Shown here one piece after another: positions 36,382 to 38,778 of a DNA stretch of 64,000 bases. This DNA is from Escherichia phage Turkey5: the sequence record PQ471516.1. The stretch is one strand, 5' to 3'. Numbering within the stretch: the stretch's first letter is position 1; every line of letters begins with the position of its first letter. Under the pieces are notes generated by a model, which did not search any database, was not told where the DNA came from, and saw only the letters and a program-made list of their open reading frames with translations. The translations under genes and the position numbers were made by a program.

Positions 36382-36424
36382 TGTTCGTCTCCAAAATAAA
36401 TCGGGTATATCTCTATTTACCTTG

Positions 36425-36452
36425 TTGACAACAGCAAATAATGTGATATAAT
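36425..36452 (+). promoter_or_regulatory. sigma70-type promoter (TTGACA - 16 bp - TGaTATAAT) for the ClpA-like gene
   Basis: TTGACA 36425-36430 and TATAAT 36447-36452 with the conserved ATGTGATATAAT block; about 40 nt upstream of ATG 36493. Confidence 0.6.
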
Positions 36453-36492
36453 GTTTATTAATTAGAGTGAGTTTAATCACATAGGAGAACAC

Positions 36493-38778
36493 ATGAACCT
36501 GACACAACTATTCAAGAAAAGCGACGAACTGGCAACCTCTATGGGTCATACTTTTTTGACAATTGACCATGTGAGTGCTACAGTACTGACAGTTGATAGC
36601 ATTGTTGACGTATTCAAGTCGATGGACATTGACGCTGCAAAGCTTCATGCACGTTTGATTGATTATTTGAAAAACAACCCAGTTCCACCAGCACCAAAAA
36701 GTACTTTAGATGATGACTCGAACCGTACTTCACTTCTAGTGAATCGCGTGATGCAGGAACTGTCTAAAAAAGCAGTGATTGAACAGCTAAATCGTGATGA
36801 TTTCTCCATTGATGCATATTTTGTTCTGTTTGAATGTTTGTCCTTCCCAAATACTGCATTCGAAGCAGTACTGAAAGAAGAAGGGGTTTCTTGTACTGAA
36901 GTAGCACGTACACTACAGAAACATGTAGAAGATATTGATACTGGCATCAACCTAAAAAGTATTAGCGACGAACCAACAGGGGACAAAAAAGTGGCTCAAC
37001 AGCAACCAGCATCTAAGCAGAAAAGTTTGGAAGATTACACTACCAACCTTACCGCACTAGCGAAGGAAGGTAAACTCGACCCAATGATTGGTCGTCAAAA
37101 AGAGCTTGCTTCTCTCGTTGAGACTCTTGCTCGTAAAACTAAGAAGAACGCAATCCTAACTGGTGAAGCTGGCGTAGGTAAAACTCAAATCGTTGATGGT
37201 TTGGCACAAGCAATCGCAAATGGTGATGTTCCAGATCATCTAAAAGATGTGGAACTACTGTCTCTGAACGTTGGTGCACTAACTGCTGGTACAAAATACC
37301 GTGGTGAGTTTGAAGAACGCATTGACAATCTTCTAAAAGAACTGAAGAAACGCGAAAACACCATCGTCTTCATCGATGAAATCCATATCATGGTTGGTGC
37401 TGGTTCTGCGAGCAACGGTTCAATGGATATGAGCAACATGCTCAAACCTGCTCTATCTCGTGGTGAGATTCGTGTCATCGGTGCAACCACTTATGACGAA
37501 TATCGTAAAAACATCGAGAAAGACAGTGCTCTATCACGTCGTTTCATGAAAATTGATGTTGTTGAACCAACAGTTGAAGAAACTCGTGAAATTATCAACG
37601 GTCTACAAAAGACTTATGAGAAATTCCACAATGTAACCTTCACTAAAGGTGCGATGGATGCAGTTATTACACTAAGTGATAAGTTCCTGAAGAACAAACA
37701 CTTCCCTGACAAAGCAATCGACCTAATGGATGCGTCAGCAGCGAAGAAACGTTCTCGTGACAATGGTAATGAAATTACTGTTGGTGATATCCAAGAAGTT
37801 GTTGCTGGAATCGCTAACCTAGACCTGAACGTAGTTGCTTGTACTGAAAGTGAGCGTATGCGTAGTCTTCCTGATGCACTTCGTTCTCGTGTATATGGTC
37901 AAGAAGAAGCAGTAACTAAATTGGTTGATAACGTGATGGTTGCTCGTGCAGGTCTACGTGAATCTTCCAGTGTTCAGGGTGCATTCATGTTTGTTGGACC
38001 ATCTGGTACTGGTAAAACTGAAATCACTAAAGCGTTGGCTGATGCAACTGGTTCTAAACTGATTCGTTTCGATATGTCTGAGTTCTCACAAGAACACACT
38101 GTGTCTAAACTTATTGGTTCACCTCCAGGTTATGTTGGTCACGATTCTGGTAACGGCCTACTGCTAGACCAGATTGAGCAATACCCGAATGCAGTGCTGC
38201 TACTTGATGAAATCGAGAAAGCAGATCGTAAAGTACTGTTGACTTTCCTTCAAGTTCTTGACGAAGGTCGTCTAACTGGTTCTCAAGGTAAGACTGTTTA
38301 CTTCAACAACGTAACAGTTGTTATGACAACTAACCTTGGTGCAGCAGACTCTACGAAACGTAGTATCGGTATGAGTGGTAGTGATACAGCACAGGATAAA
38401 GCGATTAAAGCTTTCCTACCGCCTGAATTCATCAACCGTATCGACAGTATCGTTACATTCAATGATTTGTCTTCTGATGCAATTCAGAGTATCATTGATA
38501 AATTCATGGGTAGTTTGAATGAACAAGTTAAAGACCGTGGAGTTAAGGTTTCTCTAACTAAAGCGGCTCGTGAATGGTTGGCGAAGAATGGCGTTAAGAA
38601 CGGAATGGGTGCTCGTCCAATGAAACGTACAATTGAACAGAATATCCGTGTTCCTCTGGCAAAAGAAATGCTTTGTGGTTCACTAGTTGATGGCGGTTCA
38701 GTAACATTTGATGTTATCAACGGTTCACTAGGCATTAAGCCAAAGCGTGTTAAAGCAGCAGATAAAGTAGAAGCATAA
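36493..38778 (+). CDS. clpA: ClpA-like two-ring AAA+ unfoldase (761 aa)
   Basis: Collinear with E. coli ClpA as recalled: D1 Walker A GEAGVGKT and Walker B IVFIDEIH; D2 Walker A GPSGTGKT and Walker B LLLDEIEKA; ClpP-docking-loop-like KRSIGM (ClpA has KSIGL); ClpA length, no ClpB middle domain. Confidence 0.85.
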   Translation: MNLTQLFKKSDELATSMGHTFLTIDHVSATVLTVDSIVDVFKSMDIDAAKLHARLIDYLKNNPVPPAPKSTLDDDSNRTSLLVNRVMQELSKKAVIEQLNRDDFSIDAYFVLFECLSFPNTAFEAVLKEEGVSCTEVARTLQKHVEDIDTGINLKSISDEPTGDKKVAQQQPASKQKSLEDYTTNLTALAKEGKLDPMIGRQKELASLVETLARKTKKNAILTGEAGVGKTQIVDGLAQAIANGDVPDHLKDVELLSLNVGALTAGTKYRGEFEERIDNLLKELKKRENTIVFIDEIHIMVGAGSASNGSMDMSNMLKPALSRGEIRVIGATTYDEYRKNIEKDSALSRRFMKIDVVEPTVEETREIINGLQKTYEKFHNVTFTKGAMDAVITLSDKFLKNKHFPDKAIDLMDASAAKKRSRDNGNEITVGDIQEVVAGIANLDLNVVACTESERMRSLPDALRSRVYGQEEAVTKLVDNVMVARAGLRESSSVQGAFMFVGPSGTGKTEITKALADATGSKLIRFDMSEFSQEHTVSKLIGSPPGYVGHDSGNGLLLDQIEQYPNAVLLLDEIEKADRKVLLTFLQVLDEGRLTGSQGKTVYFNNVTVVMTTNLGAADSTKRSIGMSGSDTAQDKAIKAFLPPEFINRIDSIVTFNDLSSDAIQSIIDKFMGSLNEQVKDRGVKVSLTKAAREWLAKNGVKNGMGARPMKRTIEQNIRVPLAKEMLCGSLVDGGSVTFDVINGSLGIKPKRVKAADKVEA

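Follow-up and report, generated by a model that had tools for sequence, protein, structure and literature searches.

The long gene starts that a mechanical reading-frame list assigned to seven genes of Escherichia phage Turkey5 are most probably a by-product of the rule that made the list, which takes the first start codon after a stop and so reads through non-coding DNA. The real genes would start at downstream ATG codons led by a Shine-Dalgarno (SD) sequence, a reading to which we give a probability of about 0.9. The DNA analysed was a stretch of 64,000 nucleotides (record PQ471516.1; the window) from a Rak2/121Q-like jumbo coliphage (Asteriusvirus). In the 4 kb around 36382-36507 it is 99.5% identical to Escherichia phage vB_EcoM_JNE01 (JNE01) and 79-83% identical to 121Q, PBECO4, vB_Ec-M-J and other Asteriusvirus jumbo phages. 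Remoter matches were found in Klebsiella phages RaK2 and K64-1, Cronobacter phage GAP32, Pectobacterium phage CBB, and Salmonella, Erwinia, Yersinia, Serratia and Xanthomonas phages, and gene order was kept throughout the compared phages. The window carries genes for tail tube/neck, nucleotide metabolism, tail fibres/spikes, a ClpA-like ATPase, a virion protein of 3336 residues, baseplate, a gp55-like late sigma factor and a gp47/gp46-like nuclease. No deposited Rak2-like record is identical to it; it lacks the HNH insertion of JNE01 and 121Q, and its tailspike gene is intact.

The listed starts (track starts) were the first ATG, GTG or TTG after a stop in a longest open reading frame (ORF) search. 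SD strength was expressed as the anti-SD duplex energy in kcal/mol. Deposited gene models of JNE01 (OR670491), 121Q (NC_025447), vB_Ec-M-J (OQ718158), RaK2 (NC_019526) and GAP32 (NC_019401) were compared, and the upstream frames in relatives were checked by tblastn-anchored comparison. Genes are named here by their corrected starts: A (36381), B (30694), C (27396), D (29552, the tailspike), E or sigma (59400), gp47-like (60226) and the 85-residue gene (9614). Gap alignments held nine genomes from four or more genera for gap A, six for gap B and 14 for gap E.

Gene starts led by Shine-Dalgarno sequences

The track starts are 36507 (TTG), 30838 (TTG), 27405 (ATG) and 29558 (TTG) on the minus strand, and 59349 (TTG), 60208 (TTG) and 9599 (ATG) on the plus strand. 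An earlier note on this DNA had called all seven artefactual, each being a TTG or an ATG with no ribosome-binding site (RBS), or reading through mapped promoters. All seven are mechanical longest-ORF starts, and no usable SD was found at 36507 (+0.4), 30838 (+0.7), 60208 (+0.1) or 9599 (-0.4 kcal/mol). However, 27405 and 29558 are not strictly RBS-less, as they share the SD of the true start at a spacing of only about 0-1 nt. The start at 59349 has an SD score of -5.1, but it lies 5 nt past a TGcTATAAT -10 box, that is, at or before the predicted transcript start. The note's further claim, that downstream ATGs with a good RBS give shorter proteins, was borne out by RBS scoring: the ATGs at 36381, 30694, 27396, 29552, 59400, 60226 and 9614 scored -5.6 to -10.0 kcal/mol with 6-9 nt spacers. 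For comparison, the median over 41 gene models was -6.1, and just 10.6% of ATG/GTG/TTG triplets reached -5.6 or lower. Two artefacts absent from the note's list were also found, on the minus strand and both corrected to the JNE01 coding sequence (CDS): GTG 14924 moves to ATG 14915 (gene 14133-14915, SD AAGGTGG), and ATG 48853 moves to ATG 48823 (38813-48823, the giant 3336-residue virion protein). Nine of the 41 genes are thus affected; at this base composition, an in-frame upstream start before a stop is expected by chance in 35-42% of genes.

The deposited models and the relatives agree with the shorter forms. All nine corrected starts are the CDS starts deposited for JNE01, and the N-termini of orthologous models in 121Q, vB_Ec-M-J, RaK2 and GAP32 agree with them, few exceptions aside. 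Genes A, B and C keep the corrected ATG in each of the five relatives, and for gene A both the ATG and the SD complement TCTCC are invariant in nine genomes. The tailspike ATG is kept in JNE01, 121Q and vB_Ec-M-J, RaK2 and GAP32 having no orthologue, and the sigma-gene ATG is conserved, shifted by one residue in RaK2. For the gp47-like and 85-residue genes the annotated RaK2 start lies elsewhere, and the 85-residue gene of vB_Ec-M-J has a start that is offset in the alignment.

In most relatives the frame is already closed 0-21 codons upstream of the corrected start, and indels of 1-2 nt break it inside the extensions. Outside the window/JNE01 lineage, closure occurs 10-21 codons from gene A (in vB_Ec-M-J, 121Q, RaK2 and GAP32, with a 1-nt indel that shifts the frame), 1-13 codons from gene B (in four more distant relatives) and 0-7 codons from gene D, where TAA stands directly upstream of the ATG in vB_Ec-M-J and the upstream start codon is lacking in 121Q. 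The frame upstream of gene C is closed at 4-9 codons in three of four relatives and open for 38 codons in vB_Ec-M-J; the track ATG 27405 abuts the SD, and its position reads ATT in 121Q and vB_Ec-M-J. Likewise, the sigma-gene frame is closed at 2-12 codons in three of four relatives (in-frame stops 2 codons upstream in 121Q and 6 in GAP32) and open for 41 codons in vB_Ec-M-J. In GAP32, CTA replaces the TTG of the gp47-like gene, and the upstream ATG of the 85-residue gene is out of frame.

Protein families point to the same N-termini. For the corrected A, B, 30807 and sigma proteins, the PHROG alignments begin at residues 1-3 and at position 1 or 2 of the profile, and phrog_11591 covers residues 1-494 of protein A with its positions 1-496 of 497. 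None of A, B, 30807, the sigma factor, C and G could be assigned to a Pfam family, so that PHROGs were needed. The N-terminus M[AS]VFSNLEGTM is common to the paralogous genes C and D, and MYSIKTDLD to two long fibre genes. The N-termini predicted from the corrected starts include MAYKMWK..., MTISFNNG..., MAVFSNLEGTMK... and MSIKPK...; for the virion proteins these would be (M)AYKMWKK in A, (M)TISFNNGTSSS in B, (M)AVFSNLEGTMK in C and (M)SVFSNLEGTMQPSFILGK in D, whereas the gene A extension would include the peptide sequence LCQVHVFSYVIK....

It was also considered that the extensions are real and that the TTG or ATG track starts yield N-terminally extended proteins or isoforms in this lineage. 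The extension frames are open in both the window and JNE01, TTG is a legal bacterial start, and in genes C and D no more than 2-3 codons separate the two starts, the alternative one adjoining a strong SD. However, the extended starts have no SD or an impossible spacing, the extensions are stopped or frameshifted by 1-2 nt indels in most relatives, and their peptides do not occur in the PHROG family profiles. Moreover, an extended gene A would run into the beginning of the divergent gene and across a perfect promoter, and the extension of the sigma gene is taken up by a covarying RNA hairpin (see below). Genuine extensions therefore appear extremely improbable.

As a matter of quality control, longest-ORF tracks over-extend roughly one fifth of the genes in this AT-rich phage and hide gaps that bear promoters. 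The same start artefact occurs in some public records of related phages. The Salmonella phage 7t3 record (L014 780-893) has a "hypothetical protein" of 37 residues, 7t3_0430, annotated across the promoter gap between gene A and the clpA-like gene. In the Erwinia phage Kaldavass record (L020 1-475), a structural gene is extended to 10 bp or less from the sigma gene, swallowing the divergent promoters.

Promoter classes in the divergent gaps

The earlier note proposed that the shorter genes free 36382-36492, 30695-30806 and 59274-59399 to act as divergent control regions. This proposal held well: conserved promoter elements face both ways in these gaps, and the comparisons support them as conserved, putatively regulatory, divergent promoter regions. 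Identity to vB_Ec-M-J and 121Q is 86-88% in the three gaps, compared with 73-85% in the flanking coding DNA. The statement that the track starts cross "mapped promoters" stands in part; promoter motifs are crossed, but the mapping consists of motif matches only.

In gap A, between gene A and the ClpA-like gene, a late-type element GTAAATA lies at 36414-36420 on the minus strand, 32 nt upstream of ATG 36381 and within the 30-43 nt mode of the ATAAATA sites described below. Its plus-strand complement GTATTTA is invariant in all nine genomes. Five bases away and opposed to it, a sigma-70-type promoter TTGACA-16-TATAAT matching at 12 of 12 positions occupies 36425-36452 on the plus strand, with an extended -10 element TGaTATAAT at 36444-36452, 40 nt upstream of the ClpA-like ATG. 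The TGnTATAAT is kept in eight of the nine aligned genomes, RaK2 having its own TTGACA-18-TATAAT, and the -35 drifts from TTGACA to TAGACA, GGGACA or TGGAACG. RNAalifold found no RNA element in this gap, only the complementarity of the two opposed SDs with no covariation. Gap B holds two divergent late boxes ATAAATA, at 30739-30733 (minus strand) and 30768-30774 (plus strand), 38 and 32 nt before their ATGs and invariant in six genomes. In gap E, a late promoter TATAAATA at 59313-59306 on the minus strand stands 32 nt before ATG 59273 of the baseplate/structural operon. The plus-strand promoter of the gp55-like sigma gene consists of TGGAACA at 59316-59322 and, after 16 nt, TGcTATAAT at 59336-59344; its -35-like box is 2 bp from the late promoter. 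This architecture was kept in the 14 genomes compared.

The distribution of the motifs over the window was also counted. ATAAATA is depleted (11 copies versus 22.8 expected), and all 11 copies stand 17-57 nt upstream of corrected same-strand starts, a zone that makes up 1.4% of strand positions; nine of them lie at 30-43 nt. The genes served are mostly annotated as virion or tail genes, the rest as hypothetical or endonuclease VII. The copy at 48866-48860 on the minus strand is 6 nt upstream of the track start and 36 nt upstream of the corrected start 48823, thereby joining the mode. The depletion outside gene-start zones suggests selection against stray late promoters. Perfect TTGACA-N16-TATAAT sites number five versus 0.01 expected, and TGNTATAAT occurs 11 times versus 4.7 expected; the TGnTATAAT elements at 59336-59344 and 9571-9579 have a weak -35.

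Small unannotated protein genes in the gaps, such as the 37-residue ORF of 7t3 or a short ORF from ATG 59352, would make these regions not purely regulatory. Annotation gives this some footing: besides 7t3_0430, several 121Q-like records list an added "hypothetical protein" in the gene A/clpA gap, and in vB_Ec-M-J and 121Q ATG 59352 opens an ORF of 16-17 codons that ends at or overlaps the sigma ATG. However, no SD precedes the micro-ORFs, ATG 59352 is missing in EJP2, 7t3, GAP32, CBB, Yen9-04 and Kaldavass, and the frame of its ORF relative to the sigma gene differs between the window, vB_Ec-M-J and 121Q. A leaderless or upstream-ORF reading from this ATG was ruled out because neither the ATG nor the frame is conserved. 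Moreover, gap conservation follows the promoter boxes and the covarying stem, not codon-like patterns, and coding gaps are thus very unlikely.

The placement of ATAAATA in the window matches the behaviour of T4-type late promoters, which have TATAAATA at -10, no -35, and are read by RNA polymerase with gp55. The window shares with them the core sequence, sites upstream of virion genes, an encoded gp55-like sigma factor and avoidance of the motif elsewhere. The consensus predicted from the window sequence differs in being shorter and looser (ATAAATA, and GTAAATA at gene A). The sigma factor is also longer, with 279 residues compared with 185 in T4 gp55. Closer to home, MEME had predicted three promoter classes for CBB and GAP32: RpoD-like with an UP element, a TGAAACG-type -35 with a TATA -10, and late ATAAATA; one promoter of the second class was noted just upstream of the CBB gp55-like gene (PMC5259590). 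Compared with these classes, the clpA-like promoter of the window and two others at 6382 and 6474 read TTGACA-16-TGATATAAT, the latter two with an A-rich UP-like tract. The sigma-gene promoter has TGGAACA, and in GAP32 and CBB the orthologues of both the clpA-like and the sigma-gene promoter read TGGAACG; the clpA-like promoter has a perfect host -35 in the window lineage but a phage-type box in the relatives. The RaK2 paper held nothing on promoters, the RNA-seq paper on PA5oct, a more distant relative, gave only TATAATA and TTGAC motifs, and a literature search for Asteriusvirus late promoters found nothing relevant. Corrected starts and promoter classes are already known, in that they reproduce GenBank models and classes predicted earlier for this phage group. 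Since the starts equal those deposited for JNE01 and the classes are known in relatives, we regard the finding as correct but routine.

Taken with the corrected starts, the freed DNA is most probably the control DNA of a T4-like temporal programme that runs on host RNA polymerase. Extended -10, sigma-70-type promoters would serve non-structural genes, namely the ClpA-like ATPase gene, the genes for the late sigma factor and the gp47/gp46 nuclease, and the 85-residue gene. ATAAATA late promoters with no -35 would serve the virion genes and would presumably be read by the phage gp55-like sigma factor encoded from 59400. In three gaps two such promoters appear to stand back-to-back, with core elements 2-28 bp apart, and to fire in opposite directions. 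The sigma mRNA probably begins with a conserved stem-loop, which would most likely guard its 5′ end and/or bind a regulator. We infer which holoenzyme reads which promoter, where the transcripts begin and any function of the hairpin. The corrected map offers a testable transcription layout for the structural module of a jumbo phage, ATAAATA promoters being late and extended -10 promoters host-type, in which the late sigma gene adjoins a promoter of the type that its product is predicted to recognise.

Several points weigh against this account of starts and promoters. The start assignments rest on sequence comparison, and for genes C and D the alternative starts are 3 and 2 codons away with a common SD, so that minor use is possible. 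The late element facing gene A matches at only six of seven positions (GTAAATA). Generic sigma-70 matches of at least 9/12 occur at chance level (47 versus 51.9 expected), so only the strongest sites carry weight; weak matches were set aside, including the 9/12 minus-strand site 36535-36507. Finally, the authors of the CBB study found no homologues of gp33 or gp45 in that phage (PMC5259590), and the late mechanism may therefore differ from that of T4 in detail.

A hairpin in the leader of the sigma-factor mRNA

Within the supposed extension 59349-59399 of the sigma gene lies a stem-loop, TGGTACA-AGGAT-TGTACCA, at 59353-59371 on the plus strand. It begins 8 nt past the -10 box, where the sigma mRNA is predicted to start, and has the loop consensus A(A/C)GGAU. 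The hairpin is kept in 13 of 14 genomes, its stem beginning 7-8 nt past the -10 hexamer in these 13; RaK2 has a different one. It is the first hairpin in the minimum free energy fold of all 14 leaders, that of RaK2 having another stem and loop. Across the 14 genomes the stem reads GGTAC/GTACC, GGCAC/GTGCC, AGGAC/GTCCT, GGGAC/GTCTC, TAAAAC/GTTTTA or TGAAC/GTTCA, and the A(A/C)GGAU loop is constant. In the alignment 86.9% of cells are paired compared with 33-48% in slid controls, and none of 500 shuffles reached the covariation score. Compensatory changes were found in four of six pairs, one of which shows five pair types, and RNAalifold independently recovered the same helix. Pairing is kept by covariation across Asteriusvirus, Mimasvirus, Eneladusvirus and Xanthomonas relatives. 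The hairpin shows the 59349 "extension" to be a putative structured leader, not coding sequence.

The same repeat could act as DNA, either by binding a dimeric repressor as its operator or by forming a cruciform at the +1 position of the sigma promoter, or it could be a chance palindrome. It sits directly at the predicted transcription start, a common place for operators, its stem is only 5-8 bp long, and no second copy was found by the covariance model. The pattern of change is the reverse of that of a palindromic operator, since the stem varies freely with pairing kept (GC, AU, UA, CG and UG at one position) and the unpaired loop is conserved. Moreover, JNE01 and 7t3 have G-U wobbles, which can pair in RNA but not in DNA. 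We consider a DNA element or a chance palindrome unlikely; the variable stem with a conserved loop favours an RNA element over a palindromic DNA operator.

A scan of the whole 64-kb window against Rfam returned no family at the gathering threshold. A covariance model run over about 350 kb (the window and syntenic relatives) scored only its training sites (E 9e-6 to 1e-4) and missed XaC1, which has an 8-nt loop; the best other match (E 0.075) lies inside a coding region, and the element is single-copy in this block. The loop motif ACAMGGAT occurs four times in the window versus 4.3 expected, and the other three copies have no stem.

Protection of the 5′ end and/or binding of a regulator or other protein is the most likely role of the hairpin, a view held with low confidence. 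Stabilising stem-loops at the 5′ terminus are known from the E. coli ompA 5′ untranslated region (UTR), and T4 hairpin operators, such as the gp43 operator, bind translational repressors. The leader hairpin resembles the ompA stem-loops and the gp43 operator in being short, 0-2 nt from the predicted 5′ end and kept by covariation in its stem, but it has no sequence similarity to them. Its conserved loop would suggest protein recognition, by analogy with the T4 hairpin operators. The distance from its end is 16 nt to the SD and about 29 nt to the ATG, which places the hairpin beyond the usual ribosome footprint and makes direct occlusion of translation unlikely.

The leader hairpin looks like the one possibly new element here, together with the back-to-back placement against the late promoter. 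It is a tentative suggestion that 59349-59399 holds an undescribed RNA control element for the stability or translation of the late-sigma mRNA. On the same tentative reading, the onset of late transcription from the promoter 2 bp away could occlude the sigma promoter and so give negative feedback; the two together would form a middle-to-late timing switch in Rak2-like jumbo phages. The hairpin, if new, is a small concrete handle on late gene timing in these phages.

Individual genes and further sites

The artefactual extension of gene A covers 36382-36507 on the minus strand, 42 codons from TTG 36507 to the codon before ATG 36381, and takes in the whole gap, reaching 15 nt into the divergent ClpA-like gene. 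Gene A itself (34891-36381, minus strand) encodes a virion structural protein of 496 residues and has the SD GGAGA at 36392-36388. The divergent gene for a ClpA/ClpB-like AAA+ ATPase of 761 residues (36493-38778, plus strand; SD AGGAGA at 36483-36488) has Pfam matches to AAA_2 (1.4e-49), AAA (2.4e-29) and ClpB_D2-small (3.3e-22). Gene B, for a tail protein, lies at 29567-30694 on the minus strand; no SD precedes its track TTG 30838, and a structural gene of 165 residues (30807-31304, plus strand) diverges from it. Gene C (26500-27396, minus strand; SD AAGGAG with a 9-nt spacer) encodes a virion/tail-fibre-associated protein of 298 residues. Gene D (27411-29552, minus strand; track TTG 29558 two codons upstream) encodes a colanidase-like tailspike of 713 residues, with a weak pectate-lyase-like Pfam match of 21 bits that is below the cutoff of 27.

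The sigma gene (59400-60239, plus strand; SD GGAGAG at 59388-59393; track TTG 59349 an artefact) encodes a gp55-like late sigma factor of 279 residues, which matches phrog_12791 (9.8e-151) and phrog_234, "late sigma transcription factor" (1e-16), and nothing in Pfam. It overlaps by 14 nt the gene for an SbcD/gp47-like nuclease of 343 residues (60226-61257, plus strand; Pfam Metallophos), whose SD AAGGAAG scores -5.6 compared with +0.1 kcal/mol at the artefactual track TTG 60208. The 85-residue gene (9614-9871, plus strand) has TGaTATAAT at 9571-9579, and its track ATG 9599 falls within the SD context ACATGGAGAG. This context stands before both the 85-residue gene (9597-9605) and the sigma gene (59384-59392), and most relatives have kept it. 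It occurs twice versus 0.7 expected in the window, as does the SD context ACATGGAGA, which is not significant alone. A terminator-like hairpin at about 9518-9540 (GGGAATGG...CCATTCC, then a T-rich run) follows the gene ending at 9503 and directly precedes the TGATATAAT promoter of the next gene. It is seemingly kept with other stem sequences in vB_Ec-M-J and 121Q (GAGAACGG...CCGTTCTC).

The PHROG matches of the 26500-27396 and 58542-59273 proteins begin only at profile positions 75 (phrog_10468) and 265 (phrog_12050), indicating that some family members are much longer N-terminally; such longer forms could be fusions, or models that were over-extended in other phages. The intact tailspike of the window is split in JNE01 into two overlapping CDSs (L001 27410-29176 and 29127-29552) with a 1-nt coordinate offset, which points to a frameshift or a sequencing error in JNE01; that of vB_Ec-M-J is likewise annotated as two genes. 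A 738-bp insertion separates the gp25-like and gp6-like baseplate genes in JNE01 and 121Q (L002 12371-13135; L007 4336-5100); it contains a free-standing HNH endonuclease gene, which in 121Q is gp584, annotated "protein associated with group I intron". The insertion is absent from the window and vB_Ec-M-J, and the 100-bp gap of the window (52367-52466) holds a terminator-like hairpin and an ATAAATA box only.

Further promoter-like sites were noted outside the three divergent gaps. A non-coding gap of 313 bp (6358-6670) holds two near-identical tandem promoters, each an A-rich UP-like tract plus TTGACA-16-TGATATAAT, at 6382-6409 and 6474-6501. A third TGGTATAAT stands at 6624, and all three lie upstream of an ATPase gene at 6671. 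The tandem promoters have equivalents in vB_Ec-M-J and JNE01, and the first two could transcribe small RNAs. Perfect TTGACA-N16-TATAAT sites also occur inside coding DNA, at 42663-42690 (plus strand, antisense in the 3336-residue virion gene) and 50445-50472 (minus strand, sense in the gp6-like baseplate gene); both are perfect in JNE01 and not in vB_Ec-M-J or 121Q. Finally, a TTGACA-18-GATAAT site at 36192-36221 on the plus strand (11/12, with TG) lies antisense inside gene A, some 230 bp before the clpA-like promoter. Possible roles are a second promoter or the source of an antisense transcript over the beginning of gene A; alternatively, the site may simply follow from conserved V-S-S and D-Y codons. 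In 121Q, GAP32, 7t3 and CBB the orthologous site matches TTGACA-N(16-18)-TATAAT perfectly, although the spacer DNA is hypervariable.

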